From positions 1 to 63,479 of IMG/VR virus record IMGVR_UViG_3300020461_000006: DNA of 63,479 nucleotides; one strand, 5' to 3'. A program made the translations under genes and the position numbers. This document shows, in pieces, positions 25,963 through 58,325 of this stretch. The stretch's first letter is position 1, and each line of letters begins with the position of its first letter. This DNA comes from a virus. Taxonomy: Duplodnaviria > Caudoviricetes. The notes under the pieces are model-generated. The model searched no databases and had not been told where the DNA came from. It saw only the letters and a list, made by a program, of their open reading frames with translations.

Positions 25963-26819
25963 GTCTCCCTCGTTGGAGTAGGACCGAAAGTTTCAAACGA
26001 GGCGGGACCGTAACTTAAGTTCACGCCTTTAGATCTAGCGTAACTAAGAACTTCTTCTCGGTGCTTTTTTCTCAGCCGGTCATACTCTGGATCGATGTCA
26101 AATACATCGTCAGAGTAAGGAGCGAGATAACAACGGCAGCGAGGATGACGGGGTACAGCAATTGCATTTCTCTTAAATACGTTTCCCGCTTGTGATGTGC
26201 AGACTTCACAGGTGCGGTCGTCAGAAGTGGCGAAATACATCACCAGTTCAATTCCATTCTGCGCGTAGTAATTCCTAGATGCTTCGTTGTGAGCCCTTAA
26301 AGATTCGGTTCTTACAATGACTTCAGCGCGTGTTTTGGTGACGCGTAGTCGTCGCTTCAAGTCCTTGGTAATCAGCTCTGTAGGTCGTCCCTCGGCGATC
26401 CCTTGCGCTAATACTTCTGCAGCGGTAGTCGAAAATGTACGTCCATGTTTTTCTAGGTATCCTCTCGCTTGCCTCGCTGCTGCTGTCACTGCTTCTACTG
26501 GGACGGTTACAGCGACTTGAGACTGCGATACAGACTTCGATAGCTGTTCAGCTAGATCTAGGCCAAAGGATGTTGAGCGAGATAACAGGCGACGAAATGA
26601 GGTTAAGTATTCGTCAGATTGATCCGGACGAAGAGCAGGTATCAACTCCAAAGTCCGAGCGTTTCTCTCTGCAGTCTGAAATTGACCGCTTCGTAACTGA
26701 GCGTAGGTACGCCGAAGAAGACGATTGAAAGCCTTATCTAATGACTTATTGACGATCTCAATGGTCTGATTTTCCTGGCCCTTCAAGGCTGTGTTGTAAG
26801 CCTCAATCAGATCTTCCAT
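25959..26819 (-). CDS. Minor head / head morphogenesis protein (SPP1 gp7 / Mu gpF family)
   Basis: RAEVIVRTE, DDRTCEVC, PRHPRCRC. Confidence 0.92.
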   Translation of the reverse strand: MEDLIEAYNTALKGQENQTIEIVNKSLDKAFNRLLRRTYAQLRSGQFQTAERNARTLELIPALRPDQSDEYLTSFRRLLSRSTSFGLDLAEQLSKSVSQSQVAVTVPVEAVTAAARQARGYLEKHGRTFSTTAAEVLAQGIAEGRPTELITKDLKRRLRVTKTRAEVIVRTESLRAHNEASRNYYAQNGIELVMYFATSDDRTCEVCTSQAGNVFKRNAIAVPRHPRCRCYLAPYSDDVFDIDPEYDRLRKKHREEVLSYARSKGVNLSYGPASFETFGPTPTRET

Positions 26820-33960: not shown

Positions 33961-34108
33961 TCAGCTTCGGCTGACCGAACCTCTGCTCTGGTTGCTGCTG
34001 ACACACCAGCATCAGCAACATTAATCAGAGTGTCAAAGATTGAAGCTGAGTGAGGCTTGAGTGCCTCAAAAAAGAAGCTGGCAAACAAAAGGCGTTCTTT
34101 GGTTTTTG

Positions 34109-34390
34109 TCATTGGTGCTCCATGTTGAGGATTTCACTGATGGCTTGCTTGTAGCCGTCCCAATAGATGGCTTGGAACTCACGGTCCTGGCCTTTGAACT
34201 CACTCCATGCGCTTTTCTGGCGTGCTGTTGCCCAGCTCAGCAGACTCCTAATACTGTTCCTTTGCACCTCAAGATTGGAATCATCTGGTTCATGGAAAAT
34301 CTTCTTGAGATCAGTCCCTGTTGTTGAGTTGAGTTGTAACAAGTGGCGCTCAAAAGCTGCTCGGTCTTGTGCGGCTTGAATTGAAGTCAT
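34109..34390 (-). CDS. Hypothetical early protein
   Basis: 93 aa, TAATG-coupled. Confidence 0.6.
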   Translation of the reverse strand: MTSIQAAQDRAAFERHLLQLNSTTGTDLKKIFHEPDDSNLEVQRNSIRSLLSWATARQKSAWSEFKGQDREFQAIYWDGYKQAISEILNMEHQ

Positions 34391-34581
34391 TAGACGTTTT
34401 GGGATTGGTTCTCGATGAAGCGTTGAAAAGCACCACGCTTTAGGTTGAACTGGGTTCTTTTCCTGGGTTCCTTGTGGGTGATGTAGACCTTCTTGCCGTT
34501 CCGGAAGAAGTATTGAGCACCTCTCGCTCCCTTGTAGACAGGGGCATCATCAGGAACAAGGCTGGAATCAGCGTGTGTCAT
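34390..34581 (-). CDS. Hypothetical early protein
   Basis: YKGARGAQYFFRNGKKVY motif (GxRGG-like small domain). Confidence 0.6.
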   Translation of the reverse strand: MTHADSSLVPDDAPVYKGARGAQYFFRNGKKVYITHKEPRKRTQFNLKRGAFQRFIENQSQNV

Positions 34582-34584
34582 TAA

Positions 34585-34779
34585 TCAGTTAGCGATGGTG
34601 TAGTTGTTGCAGAAGTGATCCCACTCGATCTTGTGCAGACCACGCTCCTTGTGGATGCCTTTGATTACCCAGCAGGGTTGAAGCCCAGCTTTTAAGGGTC
34701 GTTCGACAGTTAGGAGGATGAACTGTTCCTTGTCGCAATCTCTGGTGACCGTGCGGCCAATCAGTTCTTTGAGTTTCAA
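34585..34779 (-). CDS. Hypothetical early protein
   Basis: TTG start preceded by a TCTCTCTCGCACC leader variant. Confidence 0.5.
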   Translation of the reverse strand: MKLKELIGRTVTRDCDKEQFILLTVERPLKAGLQPCWVIKGIHKERGLHKIEWDHFCNNYTIAN

Positions 34780-34802
34780 GGTGCGAGAGAGATAAAAGTG
34801 AT

Positions 34803-35015
34803 CAAAAAGGGGGCTGGTCTTACGGCAGCGTCCTTACTTCCGGCCAATTTGCCTTCCGGCTGGAGTCACCGGAGTCCTCGATGGGACCGCCTTTGCCTTG
34901 GAGAGGCCCGGAGATGCAGCGGTAACTGCACCTCACCAACCGCTTGATCCGAGCAGTTGCAGGCATCACTACGGAGGACGCGTCTGGGGTGTTTACGTCA
35001 CCCCGCCCGCCAGCA
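34803..35015 (-). ncRNA. Candidate ~210-nt multi-stem structured RNA
   Basis: Intergenic; nested stems GCTGG/CCAGC, GCGTCCT/AGGACGC, TGCCT/AGGCA and six hairpins; G-U pairs favour the minus strand; ends in T run. Confidence 0.65.
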
Positions 35016-35017
35016 GA

Positions 35018-36100
35018 TCAGACGAGAGCCAGCAGGGACTTGCGGGCTCGGTCGATGCGCTTCGCACTGGCACCGCCGTAAAGAGCCTCCAGACGTGTGC
35101 GGGCTTTGTCGGTGACGCTGCGGCTCATGCCACGGTTGCGACCTCGGTCATGAGTCTCGAACTGGGTGATGGCCTGGAACAGTCCCCAGGCAGTGCCCTT
35201 TTCAACGCCAAAGCCCGTGTCACCGCTGTAATGCGAGTTGATGACATCGATGTAGGAAAGATCAGTGAGCAGACGCGGACGCGTTGCCCCGCTGTTCTTA
35301 TCCGTAACAGGACGAGACAAGTCATCGGAATAGGTATGCTCCAGGACTGCTTTGGCTTGATCCGAGTTCAGGCGCAGCGTCGTTAGAGGTCGCAGGGTCT
35401 GGAGGTCGATCTCGAACTTCAGCTGTTCGACGTTGATCAGACGAGGCAACGCCTTAGCGAACGCTGTGACAGATGCGGTGTGACGCATGACCATGCCTGC
35501 ACCCTCTTGCTTGGCGCGGTTGGCACCTTTGTTGCAGAGGAAGTTGATCTGGTTGGCACACTGCAGTCGGACGTCTGAGAAGAAGACGCCGAAGGCAGAG
35601 GAGCCATCAAAGGAGTTGAAGGCGTGGAGGTAGCGACGGACCTTGTCACCTGAGGTGACTTCGCCCTCGATGTCGCAGCGAGCAGAGACGAACACCTTCT
35701 TGCCACCACGGATGGTGAGGATGTTGTCGATCTCTACGTTCTCCCGCAGGTAGTCGAACAGCAGAACCAGAGCGTCGTTCTGCACCGGGGTGTAGTTGCT
35801 GCTCATGACGCCAAGCGAGACGCCTGTGTCCTCCCTGACGAGGTGGCAGTGCTCATCGTCGACGCGAGTCTCGCCATTGTGCTGATAGGTGCTGACGACC
35901 TTGTTGACCTTGAAGTCTGCGTCAGCCAGACGGAAGGCTTCGGAGGCGGACACGTTCTCGGTGATGAGCGTTCCGCCCGCTTGTGCAACCAGGGGATTGA
36001 CCTGATAACCATTCTCCTTGTACTTGCCATAGACCATTGCCTCCTTTTCTCGGGAGTATTGGGTGCTGACGGCGTTCGCGTATTTGAACTGGGAAGTCAT
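35018..36100 (-). CDS. DUF932/DUF945-family protein
   Basis: YTPVQND, GGKKVF, NSFDGSSA, VRLQCANQ, RHT, TAWGLFQAITQFETH; start reassigned to MTSQFKY (36100), which follows the promoter and leader motif. Confidence 0.85.
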   Translation of the reverse strand: MTSQFKYANAVSTQYSREKEAMVYGKYKENGYQVNPLVAQAGGTLITENVSASEAFRLADADFKVNKVVSTYQHNGETRVDDEHCHLVREDTGVSLGVMSSNYTPVQNDALVLLFDYLRENVEIDNILTIRGGKKVFVSARCDIEGEVTSGDKVRRYLHAFNSFDGSSAFGVFFSDVRLQCANQINFLCNKGANRAKQEGAGMVMRHTASVTAFAKALPRLINVEQLKFEIDLQTLRPLTTLRLNSDQAKAVLEHTYSDDLSRPVTDKNSGATRPRLLTDLSYIDVINSHYSGDTGFGVEKGTAWGLFQAITQFETHDRGRNRGMSRSVTDKARTRLEALYGGASAKRIDRARKSLLALV

Positions 36101-36146
36101 GGGGTAGTTAGGTGAGAGAGATACGAGGACGTTGCCCGTCCTGTTG

Positions 36147-36175
36147 AGGATACGAATATCCACCTGACCTGTCTA
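36147..36175 (-). promoter_or_regulatory. Sigma70-type early promoter TAGACA-17-TATCCT
   Basis: Exact 17-bp spacing; followed by AGGACG-GGCAA-CGTCCT hairpin, leader motif and ATG; -35 lies inside a CTGACCT-N4-AGGTCAG palindrome. Confidence 0.6.
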
Positions 36176-36288
36176 GGTCAGTTTGCCAGGTAGACATCCA
36201 CCGTTACACTGAGTGCTCACCGACCGTCCGCTACGAAGCGGTTGGTAGGTGAGAGAGATACGACCTCGGGGTGAGATCCGGGGTCTTT

Positions 36289-36471
36289 TTATTGGAAACC
36301 CTTTCCTTGAGGAATCGAGGTTGCAATGACGCGTCTCTTGCGAAGTGCTTCGCGTTCACGCTTGCGTCTCCACTCGCGAGTTGTGTTGGCGTCTTTACCG
36401 ATAAAGGCACTACCTCCCATGGCTCGTAAAAGCTCGTTGGTGACAGCTCCAGCAGCGTTGTTTACTTTCAT
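36289..36471 (-). CDS. Hypothetical early protein
   Basis: 60 aa, ATGA-coupled, ends KGFQ. Confidence 0.5.
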   Translation of the reverse strand: MKVNNAAGAVTNELLRAMGGSAFIGKDANTTREWRRKREREALRKRRVIATSIPQGKGFQ

Positions 36472-36713
36472 GAGTCAGCCTCTGTGTGATCGAATTGAAT
36501 GGCGACCAGGGGCGCGTCCTTCTTGAAGAACTTGGCCTCGGTCTGATCTGTTGCAAGACGGAGTGCCTGGATGACTTTCTCCGCTTCGCCTTCCGTAAAG
36601 GCGTATTGACTGGCTGAGAGATTGCCAATCACCTTGATGGCTTTGATCGCTTTCTCCAGCCGTGGAATGAGCAGACGCTTGAAGTCAGCTCGTTTGTCTT
36701 GAATGGTTTTCAT
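36468..36713 (-). CDS. Hypothetical early protein
   Basis: KRADFKRL...R..KA...I..IGNLS..Y motif, recurrent in phage small proteins. Confidence 0.65.
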   Translation of the reverse strand: MKTIQDKRADFKRLLIPRLEKAIKAIKVIGNLSASQYAFTEGEAEKVIQALRLATDQTEAKFFKKDAPLVAIQFDHTEADS

Positions 36714-36716
36714 GGG

Positions 36717-36944
36717 TTAATCAGGTGTGGGTGTACCAGTTCCTTCATCAGCATCGAGAGTTTCAGAAAAAACAATTCCTTGAAGGATTGTTTTGAGACT
36801 TTCAGCAGAAGTCAACAAACGCTTTCGCAGTGCTGAACGGTCGGTGAATTTCTTAGACCAAGCTTCAAAAGCTTTATCGAAGTCTTCAATATCCGAGTGA
36901 AAGTCGTTGGCAATTCGAACATCAAAATGGTGGTGATACCTCAT
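36717..36944 (-). CDS. Hypothetical early protein
   Basis: 75 aa, ATGA-coupled. Confidence 0.55.
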   Translation of the reverse strand: MRYHHHFDVRIANDFHSDIEDFDKAFEAWSKKFTDRSALRKRLLTSAESLKTILQGIVFSETLDADEGTGTPTPD

Positions 36945-37219
36945 CGGACATCAACTCCTTCAATGAACTTCGGGGCTTGGAAGATTCCGCAGACGTGATC
37001 GCAAGTGTCTGAGTAGTGTTGTGCCCAGGCACGGGCTGTGCGGAGAGAATCGAAGTAGTGATCGTTGCCAGTTGGGTTATGGCCGCCGAAGCAACCATCT
37101 GCCGCATCACGGGTGGTGATGACAACGTATTTGGCAGCGTCCTTGTTGACCTGCTTCTGACTCAGCTCAGAGAATCGCTTCTCTCGTTCTTCAGAAGAAC
37201 GGTTGTAGTTGTAGGTCAT
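36941..37219 (-). CDS. Hypothetical early protein
   Basis: 92 aa in early cluster. Confidence 0.55.
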   Translation of the reverse strand: MTYNYNRSSEEREKRFSELSQKQVNKDAAKYVVITTRDAADGCFGGHNPTGNDHYFDSLRTARAWAQHYSDTCDHVCGIFQAPKFIEGVDVR

Positions 37220-37359
37220 TCGGATAGCTCCTCTTGGTCAGTTACCCAGGTTTCGAAGTCTGGTGGTGTGCTGTAGTCGTCGCCGTAGTTCTGAGGAGAG
37301 GGATCGAAGTTTTCGAGGTACTCCTCGTAGCGTGCTCGTAATAAGTCAGTCATGGTTAG

Positions 37360-37632
37360 TCAGCCGATGGAGAAGTAGAGGGTCTTGCCGTTGATCGAGC
37401 GTTTCTCGACTTTCTCTTCCTTGACCAGTGACTCCAGGAGTCCATAACTGAACCACTGACGAGAGTCGTTGTATCCAATCGCTTTACCTACATCGCAGTT
37501 GCGGACACCCTCAGGGTTGTTGTCCATGAACTCGATGATGGTTTGCTTGAGAATGTGATTCGAGATGAGAGTGTGTGCAGGCCAGACAATCTTGTCGGCT
37601 CTGAACTTGTTTGTGGTGACGGACGAGGTCAT
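37360..37632 (-). CDS. Small winged-helix-like protein
   Basis: IIEFM..NPEG....V.KAIG....Y.LLESLVKEEKVEK..GKTLYF; leader motif upstream. Confidence 0.6.
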   Translation of the reverse strand: MTSSVTTNKFRADKIVWPAHTLISNHILKQTIIEFMDNNPEGVRNCDVGKAIGYNDSRQWFSYGLLESLVKEEKVEKRSINGKTLYFSIG

Positions 37633-37693
37633 GTGATTAGGTGAGAGAGATGAAAAGATCTGGCATCAAGCCCAGGCCAGTGTTGGGCGGGAT

Positions 37694-37963
37694 TTAAGGC
37701 TCGTAACTGCCCTTGAAGTTGGGAACCAGGCCGAAGCGTTCCTGTGCTTTCTCCTTCCTCTTTTCTTTACGGAGACGCTGTGCCAGGGATGTGACGTGCT
37801 CCATAACCTTCAAGGTGTCTTCAGTAGAAGCACCTTCGGGCATTTCCTTCTGCACAACTCGCAGAAGTGGAAAGAAGAGATCAGAAGCTTCCTGCATTTC
37901 TTCTTGAGTGATTGGATCTGTGTCTTTCATTTCAGCAACAGGATGGGCGGACAACTGTGACAA
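37694..37963 (-). CDS. Hypothetical early protein
   Basis: Helical ORF; start may be 37930 (MKDTD). Confidence 0.55.
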   Translation of the reverse strand: MSQLSAHPVAEMKDTDPITQEEMQEASDLFFPLLRVVQKEMPEGASTEDTLKVMEHVTSLAQRLRKEKRKEKAQERFGLVPNFKGSYEP

Positions 37964-38073
37964 TTCGACTGGGTTCTGGATCGTTGGTTATGTAGTGAAA
38001 GCCTTGCGGATGAAGGCATATCCACTTAGCGCGACTTTCCAAAATCGAAAGGTCGCGAGCGCGGAGGACAAGA

Positions 38074-38331
38074 TCATGCAGGTTCATAGTTGATTGCAGA
38101 AGTGTTCAAGTGTCCGTATGGGAGAACGTATTCGAAGGTTGCTCCTGAGTAATAGGAATTGCTTTTCAAAGAGAACTGAAGTCGTTCATTGTGCTCATTG
38201 AGATTCTTGATGTAGTCAAGTGCTTTCTCTTGTGCCTCTTCCTTTGAATCAGCAATCACAAAGAACCACGAAGACGGAATGTCGCGTCCGTGTTCATTGT
38301 TAATTAGCGTTCTGAACTTGTAAGTTTTCAT
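38074..38331 (-). CDS. Hypothetical early protein
   Basis: MKTYKF...VIADSKEEAQEKA motif; start reassigned. Confidence 0.55.
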   Translation of the reverse strand: MKTYKFRTLINNEHGRDIPSSWFFVIADSKEEAQEKALDYIKNLNEHNERLQFSLKSNSYYSGATFEYVLPYGHLNTSAINYEPA

Positions 38332-38454
38332 AATTAAGTGGTGGAGATGCGTGAGTAGAAAAGACTGCATCTGCAGTCGGCCAAGGTGTAAGGAAGAGAA
38401 CGACAGTGCAGATGAGTATGGTTGTCATTCCGAAGATCTTCTCTTGCTGTTTGG

Positions 38455-38865
38455 TCATTGCTCCACCTGGCTCTTGATGGGTTTGACAGTCAGGTAGACA
38501 GATTCGCTGAATTCAGCAGTGCCGTTCTCCTGCTCCACACGTTGCAGATGAGAGATGCGGTTTGACTCACGACGCAGCTCGTCGCTGTATTTCCAAACCT
38601 TGCGACGACAGACCACGACTTGCTCGTCATCAGTTGCAGCAGCTTGGATCTCATGCTTGTTCATGAAGTGCAGGATCTGTGCCTGACGTGCTTTCACTTC
38701 TGCTTCAATGTCCTTGAGAAGCTTCTTACGGTCGAGATAGATCTGCAGTTCACGTTCGTATTGTTCTTCTGTCCAGTTTTCAGCCATGGGTTTGGTTGCT
38801 TTGGTTGAGAACTTGATGCGCTTCTTAGTAGCAGATTGTTGCTTGTTGCGAGTTGAGATGGTCAT
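38455..38865 (-). CDS. Hypothetical early coiled-coil protein
   Basis: 136 aa; leader motif abuts ATG. Confidence 0.65.
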   Translation of the reverse strand: MTISTRNKQQSATKKRIKFSTKATKPMAENWTEEQYERELQIYLDRKKLLKDIEAEVKARQAQILHFMNKHEIQAAATDDEQVVVCRRKVWKYSDELRRESNRISHLQRVEQENGTAEFSESVYLTVKPIKSQVEQ

Positions 38866-38883
38866 GGTGAGAGAGAGAAAGAA

Positions 38884-39231
38884 TCAGAGTGCGTATGCGT
38901 TGTCGGTTAAGACAACCTGGCGAGAAGATGTGAATAACTCGCCATTGTGTTTCCACACAAAAGCATCATCACGTTGTGGGTTGTATGTGATGCGTCTGTG
39001 AGAAGGGCTGACATCAAAGGAAGAAGTACAGATCTCGCCTTCTAAGTAGGCGTGAACGTACTTCTTACCTTCTACCCTTGTTTGTTGCTGACCGTAGTCA
39101 TTAACTACAGTTGTGACGTTGTTGAGTGCAAGACGTTGAAGATGTCCAGCGACTCTCCAACCTTTGCCTGGAATGTGTTTTTGTACACTCCAGATGTGCT
39201 TTGTAAGGTTGTAGTAGACGCGTACTTTCAT
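38884..39231 (-). CDS. Conserved phage hypothetical protein
   Basis: VRVYYNL....WS, K.VHAY..G, ITYNP...F motifs recurrent in phage early proteins. Confidence 0.7.
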   Translation of the reverse strand: MKVRVYYNLTKHIWSVQKHIPGKGWRVAGHLQRLALNNVTTVVNDYGQQQTRVEGKKYVHAYLEGEICTSSFDVSPSHRRITYNPQRDDAFVWKHNGELFTSSRQVVLTDNAYAL

Positions 39232-39512
39232 TGCTCCATTGCCTCATTAGCGTTGTCAGCCCATGCCAGGCAATAATCCAAACAATCATCAAGTTTGGCA
39301 AGAATTTCTGCCCGCTCAAATAATGCTTGGTTGTAATCATCTACAGGATTACATTGAAAGTCGCGACCATGACATGTGCATTTCTGTAAGATGTGCAATG
39401 CCTTTCTGATTGCATCTTGAGCATCCATGTACTCGTCGAAAAGTGATTGTGCATCTGTACCGTTGAGATTGATCTTAGGAAGAGTGAATGGTGACTTAGT
39501 TGGTGTGTACAT
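39228..39512 (-). CDS. Hypothetical early protein
   Basis: LPKINLNGT...HGRDF motif; start reassigned to MYTPTK. Confidence 0.6.
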   Translation of the reverse strand: MYTPTKSPFTLPKINLNGTDAQSLFDEYMDAQDAIRKALHILQKCTCHGRDFQCNPVDDYNQALFERAEILAKLDDCLDYCLAWADNANEAMEQ

Positions 39513-39711
39513 GATCAGGATGTTGATGAAGGTAATCGAAATGTGGATCGTCGTAATGTTTGATCCAGCAGCAGTAATTTCCAGACATTGAGACTGCAAA
39601 TATGCGGTCATCGCATACTTGTTCAATCCACATTCTGTTGTCGTTGTTCATCGCATTAGCGAGACGATTCTTGGCTTTAGAAGATCGAGGATTGACGAAG
39701 ACAACAGTCAT
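39496..39711 (-). CDS. Hypothetical early protein
   Basis: V.PRSSKAKNRLANAM...W....DDPHF pattern. Confidence 0.6.
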   Translation of the reverse strand: MTVVFVNPRSSKAKNRLANAMNNDNRMWIEQVCDDRIFAVSMSGNYCCWIKHYDDPHFDYLHQHPDHVHTN

Positions 39712-39950
39712 CGATGTGGCCTCCCGTAGATTTCACAATTGCGATCACGGAGTGAGTCACAACAACCGTCGTCAGTTGCGAAGTAGGTTCTTACTGGTGG
39801 TTCTATTCGTTTTTTGAAAGTAATAACTTTCCAATCTTCTTTTTTGATGTACTGAGATCGCCTGTAGGCAGATGCCATTGCTTTGGCTTCCTTGTAGGTG
39901 TAGGCAATACCCACAACCTTGTTAGATCGTGTGTCGATGACGTTGAACAT
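39708..39950 (-). CDS. Hypothetical early protein
   Basis: Start reassigned to MFNVID, 12 nt downstream of leader motif. Confidence 0.55.
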   Translation of the reverse strand: MFNVIDTRSNKVVGIAYTYKEAKAMASAYRRSQYIKKEDWKVITFKKRIEPPVRTYFATDDGCCDSLRDRNCEIYGRPHR

Positions 39951-39996
39951 GATGAGTGAGTGAGGTGAGAGAGATGACCGCAACCGGATAAGGTTA

Positions 39997-40734
39997 CTAC
40001 GAAACAGCAGTTTTGGAGCTATAGCCGGTGAACTTGTTGGCTTTGCGACGTTCGGCAATCGCTTTGCTCCACTCAGAACCCTTAGGTTGAGTGCCATGCA
40101 CTAGAAGTGCAAAGGGTTTATTACCGAAACAATGCGAATCATCGTGATCGACTTCTAAACCGTCTTCCATAGCTTCTTCTTCAGTTTTGTAGACCTTTGC
40201 AAATCTGGGGAACAATCCCTGATCAATTAGATGATCGAACTTGCCGCCATACGATGCAGTGAGATAGAAATTCTCAGGGAGAACAAGATCTAAGAAGAAG
40301 TCCAGAGATTTGCTGTAGCAGTAGAACTTAAGATCTGGATTCTGTTTTGCGACTTCTATCCATGCGTTTAGGTAACCACGGGAGAAGAAATCGCCAGATT
40401 CATGAATCCGTACAAGCTTTGTATTCTTCTTCCTGTGATGTTGAACGCTTGCGTTGATTAAATCAACCATTGAACCCTCAATGACTGATCGCATCAACAA
40501 TTCCATATTGTTGGCTCGTAAGTTATAAACAGCGTCATACTGTACTTCTGAAGATGCAGCAAAACATCTGAATTCTGTTTGCTTGCCGTCTTGAATTTTA
40601 CGCTTGCCGTTATCCTGCAGAACTGCAAACGATTTGCAGAACACTGCGCCAGGGCATGTTTTGCCTGCAGGAAGGCTGAAAATGAGTCGTTGCTTGAGTT
40701 TTGCGTTGCCTTGTGAGAACTTAAGAAATGACAT
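39997..40734 (-). CDS. Gene product 88 (GP88)-like Cys-rich protein
   Basis: GNAKL..FSLPAGKTCPGA..C, CFAA, VRIHESGDF, FYCYSKS. Confidence 0.75.
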   Translation of the reverse strand: MSFLKFSQGNAKLKQRLIFSLPAGKTCPGAVFCKSFAVLQDNGKRKIQDGKQTEFRCFAASSEVQYDAVYNLRANNMELLMRSVIEGSMVDLINASVQHHRKKNTKLVRIHESGDFFSRGYLNAWIEVAKQNPDLKFYCYSKSLDFFLDLVLPENFYLTASYGGKFDHLIDQGLFPRFAKVYKTEEEAMEDGLEVDHDDSHCFGNKPFALLVHGTQPKGSEWSKAIAERRKANKFTGYSSKTAVS

Positions 40735-40736
40735 TG

Positions 40737-41246
40737 TGAGATGCTGAATGCACAGCTTGAGGTGAGAGAGAAAGAAAAAAAAAAAAAAAAAAGAACTCAG
40801 TAAAGTTCTATATGTTGCCAGTAATTATGCTCAGGATGGAACACATAAAGATGTTCACAATCCATGTTGCGCCAATACTTATCAGCTGTTGATGAAGCAC
40901 GGATCACTGGTTTTTCACCATCGCCACGCTCGCAGTGATAAACAGGCTGCGGATCGCGTTGGTGAGTTTTTGGAAGATCGTAGTTTGTGCGACCGTCCGC
41001 ATCTTTTTGAAACGTAGATTGCCAAGTGTCAGTAGACCTTAGGCATGACATTGAACCGGGTTTGATGAGAGATTTAACAGCAGAAATTGTGCTGTAGTGC
41101 TCATTGAGAATAGGCAATTGATGCTCGGGATATCCATCCCAATGGCAATAAACTGCCCTGATTTTTCCTGAGGGTAATTGATACCCAATCGCAGATCTGG
41201 TGCCCATAATGAGATGCTGAATGCACAGCTTGTGAGGTGAGAGAGA
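40737..41246 (-). repeat. Duplicated 5' leader: 23-bp direct repeat TGAGATGCTGAATGCACAGCTTG (40737-40759, 41210-41232) plus AGGTGAGAGAGA and A tract
   Basis: Identical copies directly upstream of two consecutive early genes. Confidence 0.9.
40797..41207 (-). CDS. Conserved phage early protein
   Basis: MGTRSAIG...YCHWDGYP...EHLYVF signature. Confidence 0.75.
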   Translation of the reverse strand: MGTRSAIGYQLPSGKIRAVYCHWDGYPEHQLPILNEHYSTISAVKSLIKPGSMSCLRSTDTWQSTFQKDADGRTNYDLPKTHQRDPQPVYHCERGDGEKPVIRASSTADKYWRNMDCEHLYVFHPEHNYWQHIELY

Positions 41247-41995
41247 TAAAAAAAAAATGTTAGAAAGTTTGGCCCGTATTTAGGGGATGACTACACTCAC
41301 GCTCAAGTTACAAGCTCTCTGCAGGTAGACACACTGATCCCTAAATACAGTCCTAAAAAATATTTTTTATTCAATGCGACACCGACGATCTAACCTCACA
41401 CTCCAGGGATCCCGCCCGACTGGTAGCAGAGCACCGTTACGGTGGCGCATGCCTGGTGAGACTGTATCGACCGCAGGCGTTACCCGTTGGTGTCTCAACC
41501 GTTCTGGCCTTTACCGGGTCTGACTTCCTGCCGCGTAGCGAGGTTGCCGGGTAAAGGTTGGCTTATGTCCCTGGTAGGGGTTCCGGGCTGTGTCGTTTGG
41601 CGTGTGTTCCTTTCGGTGACCACAACCTACAGACCTGACCCGGTTAATCCAGAAATAGTAGACGCCTTGCCAGTTGGCACACTCTCCAGCCATCCGTACC
41701 CGGTAAAGGAAACGCGTAGCGCCCGCGAAATACCATGAAACCCACCAATCCGTCAATATCAAATAACAAATCTCTAAATATTAGATAGCGGGGGCCTGTT
41801 AATTATTAACCTAACTCTTACTCAATAACCAATAAATAACTAAATATGATCTATATGCTAACTATGCCCCCGCATAATTAAATATACATACATAGAAACA
41901 TAGATTTCAGCTATCTGAGACGATTGCTAGCAAAACCGCAAAAGATCCTAGCATGATCACCCCGAAGATCATCAGCAATTGATGCGTGTACATCG

Positions 41996-42499
41996 TCAGC
42001 AATCGTAGATCAGACATTCAGGATCACTTGGATATATAGAGCAATACGAGTCCCAATAAGTCAGTTTCTTATCTGCGGGATTGTTTTTAAGCTCGTCGAG
42101 CGCCTCTTTATCTAGAGTTCCTTCACGTAGTGAATGTTCCAACGCAATCATTGCATCGTCCATTTCCGCATTCTGCCTCATCCATGTGAATAACGTATCC
42201 TCCCTAATTTCGTTCCAAATATGTTGTGGACGCCACCAAGGTAGAACTTGATAATTACTCTTAGATCCGTTGCATTCAGAGCAACATCTTACTAGGTTCC
42301 ACCTCTTATTTGGCCCGCCATGTGAGCGTGGGATGACATGATCGAGGGTCCAGGATGTTGCTTTGCGTCCACAATACGCACATCGGTCACCGGGATAATC
42401 CGCGATGATTGCTTTCCTAAACCGCTTTACCGCATTTTTTGGCCTTGTTTCGTGAAGTTGAAAGAGCAATTCGTCTGACGATTGCGCTACTCGCATCAC
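41996..42499 (-). CDS. HNH endonuclease
   Basis: CAYCG..TLDHVIPRSHGG...NLVRCCSECNGSK. Confidence 0.92.
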   Translation of the reverse strand: MMRVAQSSDELLFQLHETRPKNAVKRFRKAIIADYPGDRCAYCGRKATSWTLDHVIPRSHGGPNKRWNLVRCCSECNGSKSNYQVLPWWRPQHIWNEIREDTLFTWMRQNAEMDDAMIALEHSLREGTLDKEALDELKNNPADKKLTYWDSYCSIYPSDPECLIYDC

Positions 42500-46928: not shown

Positions 46929-49580
46929 ATGGACATGAGCCCCCAGATGGCAGCTGAAGAGTTGCTGCGTCGGAAGCATCTCCCACAAGAATGGAAATGG
47001 TGTCTTGTGCGCGGTAAGGACGCATTCGGACAAGGTACATCATCAGACCCTCTCGATACGGATACCACTCTCAAGAAGGTCAAGACCCGGCATCACCGCC
47101 AGACCGGCATTGGCTTGATTACCGGTGAGAAGAGCGGCGGGATTGTTGCTGTCGACATTGATGGTCTTGCTGATGGGCATCTTGGACCCTGCCGATCTGA
47201 ATGGCTGCTGAGGGAAAAACTGGGTGACGCTTACCCGGATTCCAACGACACGATGAGCTGGAGGGGGCGGCCTGGTAGGCGTCAGCTGCTGTACCAGATT
47301 CCTGAAAGTGTTCGACCTCTGGTGGAGAGCTTCACCAAGAAAGAAATGTTCCCTGAGTTGGAGGGGAGCACCGAGGAGGTGAAAGTTAGATACAGCGGGT
47401 GCTACTCGGTGATCCCTGGTTCCATTCACCCAGGAACCAAGAAGCCTTACGAATGGCTGAACTACAACGAGGGCCGAGTCGCAATCGCTCCGGGTTGGCT
47501 GATCGACTTCATGCTCTCTCACGTCGAGAAGCCGAAGGAGCACAACAGCTTTATTCCCCAGTCCTTTTATGAGAGGCAGGACGCCAGCACCGATTTCACA
47601 TATCGGCAGATGCGTCGTCACTTCTTTATGGAAGGCGGGCTTCTGGAGAAGCTTTTAGAGACCGAAGGGGCATTTGAAGCGATCTACAACGCTGAGGTCT
47701 GGGATTACCAGCCTCTTCAGGTTGAAAACTCTGAGAAACGAACCCTTGTTGGAGGCTGTCCTTTCCACGACAGCAGCAGCGGAACCAGCTTCACCATCTG
47801 GTCCGACAAGTTGAATTGGTACTGCCATAAAGAGGAAGTCGGTGGGGATGCGCTCCGACTTCTCCATGCCTTGCGTGAAGGAGACATCAATGCAGGTGAT
47901 CCAAAACCTGTAGATCTTCAGAACTATCTCCAACAAATCGCTGAGGTCGTCGGCGTTCGTTATCCAGAGGATTTCAAAGAAGTCCAGAAAACGCAGGAGG
48001 TCAAGAAGTACGACCCGATCGAGGGGCCTTCTCTTCTGCAGGTTGCGCGGGAGATCTTTGAGAAGTTCCCGAACCCGGCAGAGCAAGACCTCGAACTGCT
48101 GCAGCTGGCAAATGATTACGGCGTAAGAAAGGACGCAGACCAGATCCGGTTGCTGCTCCAGGACGACGAGGACTTCAAGCGCTCTGGTGACACACTCGAC
48201 TTCCAGGCACGTCAGGCGCTGATCACCGGAACTGACTGGTTGATTCCTGATGTGCTGAAGCGTCCGTCCACCGTCCTGCTTCATGGTGATGGTGGCTGTG
48301 GAAAATCACTGGCCTGTCAGGTGCTGGCGAAGCACATCGGTCAGGGCCTGCCCTTCAAGGTCAGGGGCGCAGAGATGCCAGTTAAGTCAGGCCCCGTTCT
48401 CTGGTGCAACGCTGACCAGTCGCTCGAAACACTCGAAGAGCAGCTCGAAGCACAAGGAATCCATAACGCTCCCTGGTTCCATGTCTTTCATGACTTCCGC
48501 TTGCGTCACGTTCATCGGCTTGCTTCCAAGATCAAAAAGCTGCAGCCAGCGCTGGTCATCATCGATTCCTTGGCAGCGAGTCAGCCCACCGTCGATGGGA
48601 ACAAGCAGATCGTGTCGGCTCCTCTTTATTGGTTGGAGGCCAACAACGGTACGGCGTTCCCGAAATGCACCTTTGTGGTGATCCATCACAACAACAAGCA
48701 GGGCGGCTTCAGGGGTCACTCTTCAATCCGCGATGCGGTCTCGGAAACGTGGTCGATCTCAAAACCCACTGATGCAGAGATGGAGGCCAACGAGTGGGGT
48801 GAGGACACCTTCCGTCGTCGCAAGATCACCATTGGGAAGAGCCGTAGCAATAGGGAGGGTGACTCACTGATCACTTACCTCCACGAAGACTTCACGATGG
48901 ATCTGGAGGACTTCACGCCAACTCAACGGGCTCGTCCTGGCGGAAGCGTGTCCGTGTACGACCGCGTTCACGCCATCATCCGCGAATGCACTGAGGTTGG
49001 TAAAGCACTCCGCAGAGATGAACTGACCATCAGGGTCAATGCAGACGGTGGTCGCAAGGCCTCTGACTCAGCCATCCGTAAATCGTTGCAGAGGCTGGAA
49101 ACGAGAGAGCTGATTGCCTCTGTCGTTGCGGAGGATCAGAACCGCTCTGATGCCTCCCCTGCGAAGGCGTACATCGCCAAAACTGCTGACGGTGTTGTGT
49201 TGTTTGAATCGCTTCTTTCTCTCTCGCGGGGAGAGTGTCTTGATGATTTTTGTCCCACTGGAGAAGAACCCAGTGAGGGAGAGGCGTTTCCAGTGGGACA
49301 ACCCAGTGGGACAACCAGTGGGACAACCAGTGGGACAGCCCCAAAAACACCACAAAATGAGCAAAATGACTTAACCCCTGATGAACACAACCGGACAAGG
49401 TCAGATAGGTACACCAATCCCCAGTGGGACAACTTGAACCCTGTCCCACTGGAAAACTCAGTCACAGACAGCAATCTTCCCAGTGGGACAAGTACGGAGG
49501 ACAGTAGGGCAAACGGCCTTGAAGGGTTGGAGGTACGGCAACCACCCAGTTGGGATGAAATTTTAGGGTGTAACATTTAG
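46929..49580 (+). CDS. Primase-helicase (Prim-Pol + zinc finger + AAA_25/RecA-like helicase)
   Basis: GIGLITG..GIVAVDIDG, SVIPGSIHP, CPFHD..WYCH, Walker A HGDGGCGKS, VIIDSL, IHHNNK. Confidence 0.9.
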   Translation: MDMSPQMAAEELLRRKHLPQEWKWCLVRGKDAFGQGTSSDPLDTDTTLKKVKTRHHRQTGIGLITGEKSGGIVAVDIDGLADGHLGPCRSEWLLREKLGDAYPDSNDTMSWRGRPGRRQLLYQIPESVRPLVESFTKKEMFPELEGSTEEVKVRYSGCYSVIPGSIHPGTKKPYEWLNYNEGRVAIAPGWLIDFMLSHVEKPKEHNSFIPQSFYERQDASTDFTYRQMRRHFFMEGGLLEKLLETEGAFEAIYNAEVWDYQPLQVENSEKRTLVGGCPFHDSSSGTSFTIWSDKLNWYCHKEEVGGDALRLLHALREGDINAGDPKPVDLQNYLQQIAEVVGVRYPEDFKEVQKTQEVKKYDPIEGPSLLQVAREIFEKFPNPAEQDLELLQLANDYGVRKDADQIRLLLQDDEDFKRSGDTLDFQARQALITGTDWLIPDVLKRPSTVLLHGDGGCGKSLACQVLAKHIGQGLPFKVRGAEMPVKSGPVLWCNADQSLETLEEQLEAQGIHNAPWFHVFHDFRLRHVHRLASKIKKLQPALVIIDSLAASQPTVDGNKQIVSAPLYWLEANNGTAFPKCTFVVIHHNNKQGGFRGHSSIRDAVSETWSISKPTDAEMEANEWGEDTFRRRKITIGKSRSNREGDSLITYLHEDFTMDLEDFTPTQRARPGGSVSVYDRVHAIIRECTEVGKALRRDELTIRVNADGGRKASDSAIRKSLQRLETRELIASVVAEDQNRSDASPAKAYIAKTADGVVLFESLLSLSRGECLDDFCPTGEEPSEGEAFPVGQPSGTTSGTTSGTAPKTPQNEQNDLTPDEHNRTRSDRYTNPQWDNLNPVPLENSVTDSNLPSGTSTEDSRANGLEGLEVRQPPSWDEILGCNI
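49251..49490. repeat. Iteron-like repeats CCAGTGGGACA (putative replication origin)
   Basis: Six direct copies (49290, 49303, 49315, 49327, 49421, 49480) and two inverted copies (49251, 49442). Confidence 0.85.
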
Positions 49581-53666: not shown

Positions 53667-56024
53667 TTGATCGCCCTACGACCATTGAAAAGATCTGAAT
53701 TTGCTGAATCTGCACCGGCTGCGAACCCGGTGTTTTACCGGACATACAGCCGTAAAAAAGAAGATGGAACCCGCGAAAGCTTCATTGAAGTCTGTGATCG
53801 AGTCATAAAAGGACTGAGCAAACTAGGCCGATTCGACACTGAGGAAGAGCGGCTTGTAGAGCATTTACTGCTGCAAAAGAAGATGCTTCCTTCAGGACGC
53901 TGGCTATGGGTTGGCGGAACTGAGTGGATTGAAGAACCTAAGAATTTTTCCGGTGCTTACAACTGCACATCCACTGAGCTAGTGGATTGGGAAGCCTTTG
54001 GTTTGATGATGGACCTGGCAATGATGGGCTCTGGCACAGGCGCGATCATCGAGGAACGAATGATCAAGCGCTTGCCTGAGATCCGCAACAGGCTGAAGGT
54101 CGATGAAGTGGTCGGAGTCGGTGGTGTTTCTGACGAGAACCGTCACGAAAACACTTATGTGGATTACTTAGGCAACAATCTGAAAATTACGGTCGGAGAC
54201 TCACGGCGTGGCTGGGTCGATGCGTACACCGCCATTCTCGAAGCCAGTTCAGAAATGGTGTTTGACTGTCAGCGTCCTGTCCACATCAGGGTAGATCTTT
54301 CTCACGTTCGTCCTACTGGTCAGAAACTGAAAGGCTTTGGTGGAACTTCGAATCCCATCAAGCTTGAGAACCTTTTCTATCGAATCGCTGACATCATCAA
54401 TGGAGCATTTGGGCGTCAGCTGACGTCTGTTGAGTGCTGCCTGCTTTTGGATGAAGCGGCCACGGTGGTTGTCGCTGGCAACATCCGTCGCAGTGCGGGC
54501 ATGCGTCAGTTCAACAGCAATGACATCGCTGCGGCATCTGCCAAGGACAACCTTTGGCAACAAGACGCTAATGGCACCTGGCGTATAGACCCACAGCGAG
54601 ACGCGTTGCGGATGGCGAATCACACCCGCGTTTATCACTCCAAACCATCTCGGGATGAGGTGTTGGCTGCTGTGACCAAGCAGTTTTACAGCGGTGAAGG
54701 CGCAATTCAATTTGCTCCTGAAGCCATCGCCCGATCCAACGTCGACCTCCTCGACACCGATGAAAAGCGCAAGCAATTCATCAACCTCTATTGCGAGGAA
54801 GGACGCGAGGTCGCTGCGGCTTATTTGACCGTGTTGGACCCCGGCACTCGTCCCATGGACGACAAAGAGCTTCGTCACCGCATGAACCGCTATGGACTAA
54901 ATCCTTGCGGGGAGATCTTGGGCACCGACTTCCACTGCAATCTGAGCGAGATTCACCTCAATCAGCTGGATCCCAACAACTGGCAAGAGCAGGAGGATGC
55001 CTTCCGTGCAGGCGCACTTACTGCCGGCGCTCTCCTGCATCATGAATTCAATGTTCCCCGTTATCGGGAGAGCCGGGATCTAGATCCGATTGTGGGCGTC
55101 AGCTTCACCGGTCTGTTCGACTTTTTTGTCCACGCTTTTGGTGCTGAATGGTTGCGTTGGTTTGTGGATGGCCGTCCTGACACAGCTGCAGGTAAGGCGT
55201 TCAAGAAGACAGAAGCCTCCTATTTGATGCGTTGGCGGAAGGTTGTTGAAACCACGCTTAAGGAATACTGCGAGAAGCACAAGCTCCGTGTTCCCAACCG
55301 CAGCACCACTGTCCAGCCTGCTGGAACCAAGAGTCTTCTGACTGGCGCAAGCAGTGGGTGGCACCCTCCCAAGTCGCAACGCTTCATTCGTCGGGTGACT
55401 TTCCGGAAGAACGATCCTGTTGCGCTGGCTTGTATTGACTACGGGTATTCAGTTGTTCCCTCGCAGTCCGATAAGGATGAGGAAGGGAAGCTGCTCGACA
55501 ACCCCTTTGATCCACGTTGCACCGAATGGTTGGTCGAGATTCCTTATTCGACCAGCTGGGCTGACATCCCTGGTTGTGACGATGTGGACATCTCAGCGAT
55601 TACTGCTGCAGCGCAGTTCGACTTCTACATGCAAGTGCAGAAGTTCTATACGACACACAACACGTCAGCCACGATCGAGTACCGCGAAAACGAAATCGAA
55701 CCACTTTCTGACCTGATCTTTAAGTCGATCGAGTCTGATGGTGGTTACATCTCAGCAGCGCTGCTTGCTCGTTTCGATGCTGGTGCCACCTTCCCCCGGC
55801 TCCCGTTCGAGCCGATCTCGAAGGAGGAGTACCTGGAGCTGCAGGCTGAAATGGGTGTTCGTCGGCGCAATGGTGACTTCCTCGCATCGCTAACCAACCA
55901 CGACGATGGGGAGCTGATCGAAGCTGGTCCTGCTCCATGTGATTCGGACAAGTGTTTGATTGAAGGCGCAGACGGTATCGCTAAACCGTTCTCAGAGGAA
56001 TCTATGTTCGCTCCGATTACTTAA
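53667..56024 (+). CDS. nrdJ: Class II (adenosylcobalamin) ribonucleotide reductase
   Basis: ANPVFYRTYSR, PSGRWLWVGG, AYNC, GNIRRSA, NPCGE, TTVQPAGT; monomeric cyanobacterial type. Confidence 0.95.
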   Translation: MIALRPLKRSEFAESAPAANPVFYRTYSRKKEDGTRESFIEVCDRVIKGLSKLGRFDTEEERLVEHLLLQKKMLPSGRWLWVGGTEWIEEPKNFSGAYNCTSTELVDWEAFGLMMDLAMMGSGTGAIIEERMIKRLPEIRNRLKVDEVVGVGGVSDENRHENTYVDYLGNNLKITVGDSRRGWVDAYTAILEASSEMVFDCQRPVHIRVDLSHVRPTGQKLKGFGGTSNPIKLENLFYRIADIINGAFGRQLTSVECCLLLDEAATVVVAGNIRRSAGMRQFNSNDIAAASAKDNLWQQDANGTWRIDPQRDALRMANHTRVYHSKPSRDEVLAAVTKQFYSGEGAIQFAPEAIARSNVDLLDTDEKRKQFINLYCEEGREVAAAYLTVLDPGTRPMDDKELRHRMNRYGLNPCGEILGTDFHCNLSEIHLNQLDPNNWQEQEDAFRAGALTAGALLHHEFNVPRYRESRDLDPIVGVSFTGLFDFFVHAFGAEWLRWFVDGRPDTAAGKAFKKTEASYLMRWRKVVETTLKEYCEKHKLRVPNRSTTVQPAGTKSLLTGASSGWHPPKSQRFIRRVTFRKNDPVALACIDYGYSVVPSQSDKDEEGKLLDNPFDPRCTEWLVEIPYSTSWADIPGCDDVDISAITAAAQFDFYMQVQKFYTTHNTSATIEYRENEIEPLSDLIFKSIESDGGYISAALLARFDAGATFPRLPFEPISKEEYLELQAEMGVRRRNGDFLASLTNHDDGELIEAGPAPCDSDKCLIEGADGIAKPFSEESMFAPIT

Positions 56025-57662: not shown

Positions 57663-57761
57663 GTTGCGAGAGAATGGATCTCAGTGAGACTCTGCCAGTT
57701 ACTTTGCCTCTAGTGCTGAAGACCCAAACAGCTTAAGGAGAAAGATGTATCGGTGCAAACA

Positions 57762-57781
57762 GTAATAATCGCTACTAAACT
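57762..57781 (+). promoter_or_regulatory. NtcA box GTA-N8-TAC abutting -10 element TAAACT
   Basis: GTAATAATCGCTAC at 57762-57775, -10 at 57776-57781; second near-consensus GTA-N8-AAC at 57747-57760. Confidence 0.6.
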
Positions 57782-57786
57782 GGAGG

Positions 57787-57840
57787 TACGTTGGGCCGAA
57801 AGGCTGCAGTCCGCGCTCACCATGCAACGGGGGTGAGTTC
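57787..57840 (+). ncRNA. Probable glutamine riboswitch (Downstream-peptide / glutamine-II-like)
   Basis: CGTTG...GCAACG closing stem, GGCC-GAAA-GGCT hairpin, CTCACC/GGTGAG pseudoknot; upstream of DUF4278-like ORF. Confidence 0.65.
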
Positions 57841-57857
57841 TCGGTAGGAGCGATCCA

Positions 57858-57971
57858 ATGAACGTGCTTGAAATCATCCGTCGTAAGCAGATCCGCGAAG
57901 AACGGCTTCAAAATGCCCAGATGGTCTCCCTCTGCTACAGGGGTGTGATCTACGAACGAAAAGCCAAGTGA
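57858..57971 (+). CDS. DUF4278-like small protein (37 aa)
   Basis: MNVLEIIRRKQ...LCYRGVIY; AGGAG RBS; below ORF-track cutoff. Confidence 0.75.
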   Translation: MNVLEIIRRKQIREERLQNAQMVSLCYRGVIYERKAK

Positions 57972-57980
57972 TAGGTACAT

Positions 57981-58325
57981 TTGAGTGTCAAAAGTGGCAT
58001 TCAAATGTTTATCCCAAATGATGGAATAGAGAGCCCGGACCTTTTGGTTACGGGCCTTTTTTCTGAGACGGAGGCGGTAGCTAACCCATCGCACTACAAC
58101 CAAGGCGTATCTCCATACGACGTGGCTAGGACCATGTATGGAGCGGAAGGATTACTGAAGTTCGTAACAGTAAACGCTGTAAAATATGTGAGTCGTTACC
58201 CTCATAAACACAAGGGTAATCCGGACCAGCAACTTTCTGATCTGGTGAAAGCTCGTCAGAGCCTAGACACAGCTATTGAGCTGCATAAAGAAATTTACGG
58301 CAACGACATCGTCCGCCATGGGTGA
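57981..58325 (+). CDS. DUF3310 (SaV-like) protein
   Basis: NPSHYNQG, NAVKYVSRY.HK, DLVKA; start uncertain. Confidence 0.8.
   Translation: MSVKSGIQMFIPNDGIESPDLLVTGLFSETEAVANPSHYNQGVSPYDVARTMYGAEGLLKFVTVNAVKYVSRYPHKHKGNPDQQLSDLVKARQSLDTAIELHKEIYGNDIVRHG

Follow-up and report, generated by a model that had tools for sequence, protein, structure and literature searches.

Why would a marine cyanobacterial phage repeat one 11-letter sequence just before the start codons of its small genes, and why does one copy of that sequence have no gene behind it? The question was raised by a preliminary description of IMG/VR record IMGVR_UViG_3300020461_000006, in which the motif was proposed to replace the Shine-Dalgarno (SD) site before early genes. 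The window analysed here is the whole virus record of 63,479 nucleotides. The exact motif, GGTGAGAGAGA, was found 7 times on the + strand and 0 times on the other strand, against 0.05 copies expected by chance (largest 2 in 100 shuffles), while the reversed-pattern control gave 0. The copies begin at 36111, 36248, 37640, 38866, 39964, 40761 and 41236, which are the previously given coordinates plus 1, as the preceding A had been counted, and the variant GGTGCGAGAGA lies at 34780. Allowing two mismatches gave 28 matches against 22.8 expected, so only the exact copies stand out. On the minus strand, which is the gene strand, the motif reads TCTCTCTCACC, and a start codon follows it in seven of the eight cases, as had been claimed; the copy at 36248 has none. 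The observation is therefore confirmed.

The comparison with ribosome binding sites was also found to hold in its details, though not in its emphasis. The major head gene (start 21534) has AGGAGG and the neighbouring virion gene (start 22164) has AGGAG, in agreement with the statement that capsid and decoration genes carry normal SD sites, and UCACCU is indeed part of the 16S 3' end (GGAUCACCUCCU) in a Synechococcus genome, so that the end of the tag is identical to the tail and the tag cannot pair with the anti-SD. However, only 18 of 81 genes of 60 aa or more have a 4-letter SD core before their first start candidate, against 11% at random positions. Lacking an SD is the norm in this phage and is not special to the tagged genes, so "replaces the SD" overstates the case.

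Enrichment before start codons in relatives had been named beforehand as a test of the motif. In 16 related phage sequences, the 10-letter core occurs 60 times on the gene strand and never on the other, and 44 of 44 copies outside the orphan locus lie 0-30 nt before an ATG-led reading frame, a criterion that 21.7% of random positions also pass; 13 of the 44 abut the ATG. The element is conserved in relatives whose DUF932 protein is only 57-78% identical, and orthologous genes keep the tag while the spacer and flanks diverge. All copies in the window lie in 34.8-41.2 kb, and in the complete relative G007, eight copies lie within about 6.5 kb across the genome end. Five picocyanobacterial genomes hold 3-6 copies of the core each, mostly inside genes, against 2-7 for the reversed control, indicating that the tag is phage-private. 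The motif is thus a strand-specific, start-associated leader element of non-structural genes that is under selection, although early timing of these genes is not shown.

The copy without a gene, treated in the preliminary description as an exception, is the informative one. It lies in a unit on the opposite strand that is conserved in 19 distinct sequences, some of them near-identical and all related, and that comprises a TAnnnT box, two covarying hairpins, the complement of the motif (AGGUGAGAGAGAUA) between them, and a hairpin plus U-run terminator. Two helices have 96.5% of cells paired and seven pairs with double changes, which 0 of 500 shuffles reach, and slid controls gave 20-53%. The seed and the terminator loop are invariant while the stems vary. 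The structure favours the + strand, where 386 of 399 pairs are canonical against 323 of 399 on the minus strand, with 67 G·U pairs against 4. The covariance model scored 100.5 bits on + against 14.4 bits on -, and the fold z-score was -4.18 on + against -2.33 for the minus-strand stretch. The features of the region are given in the table.

Table. Coordinates of the leader tags and of the candidate small-RNA locus in the window, with duplex energies predicted against the seed (kcal/mol).
Position (strand)	Feature	Start codon and gene	Observations
36217..36293 (+)	Candidate small RNA, about 77 nt		5' end inferred from the -10 box and 3' end from the U-run; MFE -36.3 kcal/mol; no ORF
36205..36210 (+)	Putative -10 box TACACT of the small-RNA promoter		Listed by a promoter scan; T, A and the final T invariant in 19 of 19 aligned relatives inside an otherwise variable stretch, always 7 nt before the structured part; weak -35 (TTGCCA) at 36183-36188, not conserved
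36223..36246 (+)	5' hairpin of the small RNA		Extended in the MFE by 36217-36221 (UCACC) pairing with 36248-36252 (GGUGA); three pairs with compensatory changes; six G·U cells at one pair would be A·C on the other strand
36247..36260 (+)	Seed AGGUGAGAGAGAUA, complement of the leader tag (the copy at 36247/36248)		Columns GGTGAGA.AGA invariant in 19 of 19
36262..36285 (+)	Terminator hairpin, loop (G)GUGAGAU (a second partial seed), followed by the U-run at 36286-36293		Top + strand terminator in the scan, 9 pairs, tail TTTTTATTGG; stem covaries, loop GTGAGA invariant; T columns after the hairpin conserved in 19 of 19
36111..36121 (-)	Leader tag	10 nt before ATG 36100; DUF932 gene, 35018-36100	Shares 18 nt with the small-RNA locus; duplex -33.3
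36147..36175 (-)	Sigma-70-type promoter, TAGACA-17-TATCCT	DUF932 gene	From the promoter scan; back to back with the putative small-RNA promoter; 5' UTR hairpin at 36126-36142 follows; same -35/17/-10 arrangement seen by eye in relatives (TGGACA-17-TATCTT and similar); places the tag inside the 5' UTR
37640..37650 (-)	Leader tag	7 nt before ATG 37632; 90-aa gene, first of a six-gene run	Duplex -25.4
38866..38876 (-)	Leader tag	Abuts ATG 38865; 136-aa gene	Intergenic gap only 18 nt; orthologues in 8 relatives also have 0 spacing; duplex -24.4
39964..39974 (-)	Leader tag	13-14 nt before ATG 39950; 80-aa gene	L031 orthologue has 0 spacing and the same N-terminus; duplex -25.7
40761..40771 (-)	Leader tag	26 nt before ATG 40734; GP88-family gene	Preceded by a hairpin and a T18 run; duplex -22.5
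41236..41246 (-)	Leader tag	27-28 nt before ATG 41207; 136-aa gene	Leader duplicates that of the GP88 gene; duplex -26.1
34780..34790 (-)	Variant tag TCTCTCGCACC	Abuts TTG 34779 (start codon inferred); 64-aa frame	Relative L032 has the exact tag before an ATG in the same upstream context

The reading considered more likely than not, though far from certain, is that the tag UCUCUCUCACC(U) is the docking site for a phage-encoded small RNA whose gene is the orphan copy, read from the + strand, opposite to the protein genes. The predicted transcript would consist of a 5' hairpin, an unpaired AGGUGAGAGAGAUA, a terminator hairpin whose loop repeats GUGAGA, and a U tail. The unpaired stretch can form 11-18 bp with the leaders of the first gene of at least seven small-gene units, 0-28 nt before the AUG, and six of the 7 exact targets score well beyond a background of -10.1 ± 3.1 kcal/mol (mean and sd), while the variant at 34780 is not among the top windows. 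The strongest predicted target is the DUF932 gene, transcribed divergently from the neighbouring promoter. In this view, pairing so close to the AUG of SD-less mRNAs should block 30S binding or trigger cleavage, so that the RNA would switch these genes down together. The computation establishes the motif, its placement and conservation, the strand-specific structure, the promoter-box sequence and the terminator, whereas it is inferred from sequence alone that the RNA is made, that it pairs in trans, and that its effect on the targets is repression rather than activation.

Further support comes from co-occurrence. In a clade of relatives represented by L031, the seed and all four of its targets carry the same C-to-A change, although this is a single evolutionary event, and gene conversion or a changed protein specificity could produce the same pattern. 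GP88 orthologues in 17 loci without the RNA lack the tag, while those in RNA-bearing phages have it. On the other hand, complementarity is automatic for any antisense transcript across a motif copy and is not independent proof of action in trans. In the MFE, GGUGA of the seed is paired with the RNA's own 5' UCACC, and only four of seven tags are predicted to be clearly unpaired in their mRNAs. A few non-tag windows reach similar duplex energies, for example, -27.6 at 26436 + and -25.5 at 10419 -, and in the two leaders with 26-28 nt spacing, the duplex would lie at the edge of the ribosome footprint. The preliminary interpretation, which offered a translational enhancer binding S1, a site for a phage RNA-binding regulator or a recombination handle, is thus partly supported, the regulator being more likely an RNA than a protein or S1 alone.

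Among the alternatives, all of which appear unlikely, the least improbable is that the tag is only an SD-independent translation element, a pyrimidine-rich landing pad for ribosomal protein S1 or the 30S subunit, with the orphan copy an unrelated terminator or structured spacer. The tag is C/U-rich and lies next to the AUG of SD-less first cistrons that follow structured intergenic regions, SD use is rare in this phage, and S1-dependent, SD-independent initiation occurs in cyanobacteria; such a role could coexist with the small RNA. However, a host-factor site would be expected in host leaders, where the core is at chance level in the five genomes, and S1 needs no exact 10-11-mer, yet the core is invariant across relatives. 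Nor does this reading explain the conserved, putative + strand -10 box, the terminator, the G·U asymmetry or the invariant loop. Only slightly less likely is an operator for a phage-encoded RNA-binding or DNA-binding protein working like a T4 RegA-type translational repressor, with the orphan locus as an additional or decoy site. It would fit a phage-private, one-stranded, start-associated and invariant element, the concerted change in the L031 clade, and the display of the tag core in a hairpin loop on the minus strand, which could be a protein site. Against it, no RNA-binding, sigma or repressor domain was found in the 30 proteins scanned, most of which gave no family at all, spacing to the AUG varies from 0 to 30 nt, and the strand test indicates that the orphan structure is selected on the + strand, where the sequence is the complement of the tag.

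Two further readings are considered very unlikely. A promoter or initiator element for a modified or phage-directed RNA polymerase, giving leaderless or short-leader mRNAs, is suggested by the position of the tag at the head of gene units, often directly after terminator-like hairpins and T-runs, and by the copies abutting the ATG, as a leaderless start would require. Yet no RNA polymerase or sigma gene was detected in the searches made, and no tag was listed as a promoter in the scan for sigma-70-type sites. The DUF932 copy lies about 25 nt downstream of a conserved sigma-70-type promoter, the 38866 copy lies in a gap inside an operon, a -10-like reading would put the transcription start inside the coding frame at 0 spacing, and no fixed upstream element was seen by eye. 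A short homology handle for shuffling gene cassettes, with no role in expression, would agree with direct repeats at cassette borders in the variable part of the genome and with gene content between tags that differs among relatives, but it has no support beyond the repeats themselves. The retention of the tag by diverged orthologues speaks against it, as do GP88 genes in other cyanophages that do not travel with the tag and the shortness of 10-11 nt for homologous recombination, and it does not explain the strict position before the AUG or the features of the orphan locus.

Of known systems, the start-associated sequences (SAS) of Cluster K mycobacteriophages (PMC3203893; PMC11373665; PMC12699233) are close in arrangement. 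Both are short asymmetric repeats in one orientation, present in many copies, only in the non-structural part of the genome and a few nt before start codons of unrelated genes, and both are conserved across subgroups and absent or at chance level in the host. SAS, whose function is still stated as unknown in these papers, is 13 bp, with consensus GGGATAGGAGCCC, contains the SD core AGGAG and sits 3-9 nt from the start, while the tag is 10-11 nt, sits 0-30 nt away and has no SD core in it or between it and the ATG. There is no sequence relation, the host phylum is different, and the tag is an analogue of SAS, not a member. About half of the SAS sites have 17-bp inverted repeats upstream (extended SAS), whereas by eye, only unrelated hairpins precede the tags. 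In Cluster K, the single reverse-oriented SAS copy likewise sits in the loop of a hairpin within a conserved, covarying non-coding element. It is possible, though on present evidence doubtful, that start-associated address tags read by a phage's own small RNA are a general phage device, in which one RNA with an SD-like seed (AGGUGA...) governs a regulon of seven or more genes in this cyanophage lineage; if so, the puzzle of what SAS are for, open since the 2011 description, would have an RNA answer. In a bolder extension, as the tag copies the 16S 3' tail, the same seed could also bind ribosomes, and the RNA might bridge or compete between mRNA and the 30S subunit.

The proposed mode of action is already known from the c4 antisense RNA of phages P1 and P7 (PMC12197685), a small phage-encoded RNA whose exposed complementary stretches pair with sites at the ribosome binding region of phage mRNAs and block their expression. 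The CI RNA of phage P4 can be placed beside it. However, c4 controls one operon (ant) as an immunity function of temperate phages, while the candidate described here has its own predicted promoter box and at least seven dispersed putative targets, no lysogeny genes were seen, and no Rfam 15 family matched the locus. The SD site occupies the same place as the tag, just upstream of the start codon, but differs in its complementarity to the 16S tail. In architecture, the candidate is the same as the cyanobacterial sRNA Yfr1 (PMC2190773; PMC6778093), which has two stem-loops separated by an unpaired, perfectly conserved stretch, the 3' hairpin acting as a Rho-independent terminator with a U tail. 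Yfr1 is 54-69 nt and also comes from picocyanobacteria, but no Rfam hit was obtained in 34500-41500 at E up to 10, and the phage model found nothing significant in five host-type genomes (best E 0.07). The conserved stretch of Yfr1 is pyrimidine-rich (ACUCCUCACAC) and is absent from the phage RNA, whose own stretch is purine-rich, and it is the mRNA tag that resembles the stretch of Yfr1 (shared CUCAC).

The record is classed as linear and about 90% complete, and it reads as a tailed phage with structural genes on the minus strand (major head protein, protease, portal, large terminase, and tape measure), a + strand replication block (primase-helicase, family A polymerase, and class II ribonucleotide reductase), and a minus-strand stretch of recombination and nucleotide genes (exonuclease, ThyX, RusA, and HNH) followed by many small genes of unknown function, among which the small ORFs of the region gave no informative Pfam family. 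A megablast of 34000-42000 against named phages returned no match, and no tRNA was found in the window. The host is very probably a marine picocyanobacterium, as the reductase is 63-66% identical to those of Cyanobium, Synechococcus, and Prochlorococcus genomes, which suggests a gene of host origin; the GP88-family protein is 48-68% identical to proteins of Synechococcus phages; and all 20 sequencing runs in which the DNA was found, none of them an RNA run, are labelled marine, marine plankton, or seawater metagenomes. A Glutamine-II riboswitch that passes the Rfam threshold (33.9 bits, threshold 33) points the same way; it is followed 20 nt later by a 37-aa reading frame, and the minus-strand frame that overlaps it is probably not a gene. 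An HNH endonuclease has a C-terminal stretch (residues 133-165) that just misses the Pfam threshold for CP12 (22.5 against 22.7 bits), a cyanobacterial and cyanophage Calvin-cycle regulator. At the 3' end of the primase-helicase gene lie eight copies of CCAGTGGGACA, six in one orientation (four of them in tandem at a 12-13 nt period) and two in the other, which look like replication-origin iterons.

Coordinates of the features discussed in the text (window unless another record is named)
Feature	Position	Strand
One-mismatch variant of the tag	34780	
-10-like box TACACT of the orphan locus	36205-36210	+
Orphan copy of the tag	36248	+
Leader of the GP88 gene	40735-40760	-
Hairpin and 18-T run in front of a tag	40772-40797	-
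Leader of the 136-aa gene upstream of GP88	41208-41235	-
HNH endonuclease	41996-42496	-
Iteron-like repeats	49250-49490	
Class II ribonucleotide reductase	53667-56024	+
Frame overlapping the riboswitch	57699-58103	-
Glutamine-II riboswitch	57786-57838	+
37-aa reading frame	57858-57971	+
Reverse-oriented SAS copy, Mycobacterium phage Anaya (L185)	34871-34883 (record 59870-59882)	
Unannotated gap around that copy (L185)	34683-35067	

The sequence GGTGAGAGAGA occurs seven times, always on the + strand, against 0.05 expected, together with a one-mismatch variant, and it reads TCTCTCTCACC on the gene strand. In seven of the eight cases, a start codon follows after 0-28 nt. The observation made in the preliminary description is confirmed. 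The tagged genes are the first of small runs, whose downstream genes overlap their neighbours or have their own SD-like sites. Several tags directly follow hairpins or T-runs, and one is directly preceded by a 6-bp hairpin followed by an 18-T run that is terminator-like and leaves no room for a promoter between it and the gene. The leaders of the GP88 gene and of the upstream 136-aa gene share about 24 nt (AAGCTGTGCATTCAGCATCTCA) after the tag, in which a small GCUG/CAGC hairpin is possible, and the same leader precedes GP88 orthologues in five relatives (L035, L031, L033, L146, and L154). The contrast drawn earlier with the capsid genes is correct (AGGAGG and AGGAG), and UCACCU is indeed part of the 16S 3' end in a Synechococcus genome. 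However, only 18 of 81 genes have even a 4-letter SD core; therefore, the tag does not so much replace an SD, as had been proposed, as mark a subset of generally SD-less genes.

Relatives found through the DUF932 protein (12 loci, 56-99% identity) have the tag on the gene strand in 11 of 12 cases, the twelfth being cut off upstream of the gene. Three forms occur, namely TCTCTCTCACC, (A/C)CTCTCTCACC, and, in one clade, TCTATCTCACC. A pattern for the orphan locus recovered the same 10 viral contigs and 26 metagenome stretches. Rows identical over the compared stretch were collapsed, and six pattern hits in metagenomes that lack the architecture (L145/L152, L147/L160/L164, L157, L159, L161, and L166) were dropped as chance before the alignments, which left 19 distinct sequences with the full architecture. 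In 16 of these, chosen for sufficient flank and including some close relatives of each other, the 10-letter core occurs 60 times on the gene strand and 0 times on the other. Sixteen copies are the orphan locus, and all 44 others are followed by an ATG-led frame, with a spacing of 0 nt in 13 cases, 6-10 nt in 15, 12-17 nt in 8, and 26-30 nt in 8; 21.7% of random positions pass the same loose test. Orthologous genes keep the tag while the spacer changes; for instance, the 80-aa gene has 13 nt in the window and 0 nt in L031, with the same N-terminus.

The orphan copy has no reading frame behind it, yet it is the best conserved of all. It was first folded on the gene strand, which gave two hairpins flanking the tag with compensatory changes but also many C-A mismatches. 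Read on the + strand, those mismatches become G·U pairs, and the features of a gene appear: a TACACT box, whose T, A, and last T are invariant in 19 of 19 sequences inside a variable stretch and always 7 nt before the structure; a 5' hairpin; an unpaired AGGUGAGAGAGAUA; and a 9-bp hairpin followed by UUUUUAUU, the top + strand terminator in the scan. In the alignment, 96.5% of cells are paired and seven pairs have changes on both sides, a level reached by 0 of 500 shuffles, while slid controls gave 20-53%. Canonical pairs number 386 of 399 on the + strand against 323 of 399 on the - strand, with 67 against 4 G·U pairs. The MFE is -36.3 kcal/mol (z -4.18), and the covariance model scores 100.5 bits on + against 14.4 on -. 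The seed and the terminator loop (GUGAGA, a second partial complement of the tag) are invariant, while the stems vary. No further copies were found in the window, and the hit in sequence L021 (23 bits) is a terminator only. The locus lies back to back with a conserved sigma-70-type promoter for the DUF932 gene, the conservation in relatives having been judged by eye. The mRNA of that gene begins with a hairpin of variable sequence, then the tag, then the AUG, and the tag is therefore inside a 5' UTR.

The simplest reading is a trans-acting small RNA whose seed pairs with the tags, and it is the best-supported explanation, held with moderate confidence. Predicted duplexes of the 21-nt seed region with six tags are -22.5 to -33.3 kcal/mol, against a background of -10.1 ± 3.1, and the DUF932 leader is the best of these, with 18 nt shared. 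The clade with the C-to-A tag variant has the matching change in its seed and in all four targets, and phages that share GP88 but lack the RNA also lack the tag. Nevertheless, complementarity is automatic for an antisense transcript, there is one co-variation event only, the -35 is not conserved, and part of the seed may pair with the RNA's own 5' end. The predicted accessibility of the tags is also mixed, as four of seven are unpaired at 0.76 or more and three of seven are average. The motif, its conservation, and the strand-specific structure are established by the sequence analysis, while, in the absence of RNA data, the transcript itself, its pairing in trans, and its effect on the targets are inferred. 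Pairing at -1 to about -40 of SD-less mRNAs should hinder 30S binding or invite cleavage; repression is therefore the likely sign, but this too is inference. The interpretation in the preliminary description is partly right. The tag may in addition help SD-independent initiation; the two roles are not exclusive.

Other readings were examined and rejected. A host-type ribosome site is not supported, because the 10-letter core occurs 3-6 times per genome in five picocyanobacterial genomes, the same as the reversed control and mostly inside genes, and only 1 of 20 distinct sites precedes an ATG; the tag is a private feature of this phage lineage. Nor does the motif travel with the GP88 gene, as 0 of 17 GP88 loci have the exact tag, 1 of 5 larger records has only one-mismatch hits, and their leaders are different. 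Other cyanophage lineages that share GP88 have their own repeated intergenic words: ATGACGTTAAACTG, about 60 nt upstream of the GP88 homologue in the S-EIVl-like contigs L017-L019, is part of a TTGACA-17-TAAACT promoter, and TCTCGACGAG, AACTGGCACAAGG, and ACCACACCAC occur in others (L010, L013, and L024). Pairing of the phage seed with the conserved stretch of host Yfr1 amounted to only 5 bp when aligned by hand and was dropped, and the reading of the tag as a promoter was likewise rejected.

The locus is a member of none of the systems nearest to it, as there is no hit to Yfr1 or any other Rfam family in the region and no host homologue of the RNA (best E 0.07 in five genomes). Among the papers examined, a full-text search for the core found only unrelated ones, and a search on cyanophage small RNAs found no such system, although neither search covers subscription journals. 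The nearest description is the start-associated sequences (SAS) of Cluster K mycobacteriophages (PMC3203893), which have the same genomic behaviour but a different sequence, contain an SD core, and have a function still stated as unknown in papers of 2024 and 2025 (PMC11373665; PMC12699233). Pope et al. noted that four Cluster K phages have one SAS copy in the opposite orientation, not linked to a gene start (PMC3203893). In Anaya, that copy lies in a 385-nt unannotated gap and, read on the gene strand, is the complement of SAS in the loop of a GC hairpin on a longer stem. The stretch is conserved in 135 phage records, and in eight diverse members it folds with 94.7% of cells paired and nine pairs with double changes, a level reached by 0 of 500 shuffles, with a TAGACT box invariant in 8 of 8 about 100 nt upstream. 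However, one member (Keshu) lacks the loop sequence and two have variants, and this is a lead rather than a result.

The nearest architecture is the host sRNA Yfr1, and the nearest mechanism is the c4 antisense RNA of P1 and P7. Phage antisense control is already known, but phage small RNAs are known mostly as single-target antisense RNAs or as regulators of host genes, whereas here one phage RNA would address a whole set of the phage's own genes, a regulon defined by a private tag placed at their start codons. This gives a compact, testable model for coordinate post-transcriptional control in a marine cyanophage, whose host group makes little use of SD pairing, and it also offers a concrete hypothesis for the unexplained SAS of mycobacteriophages, in which attention falls on the one copy that is read as the complement.
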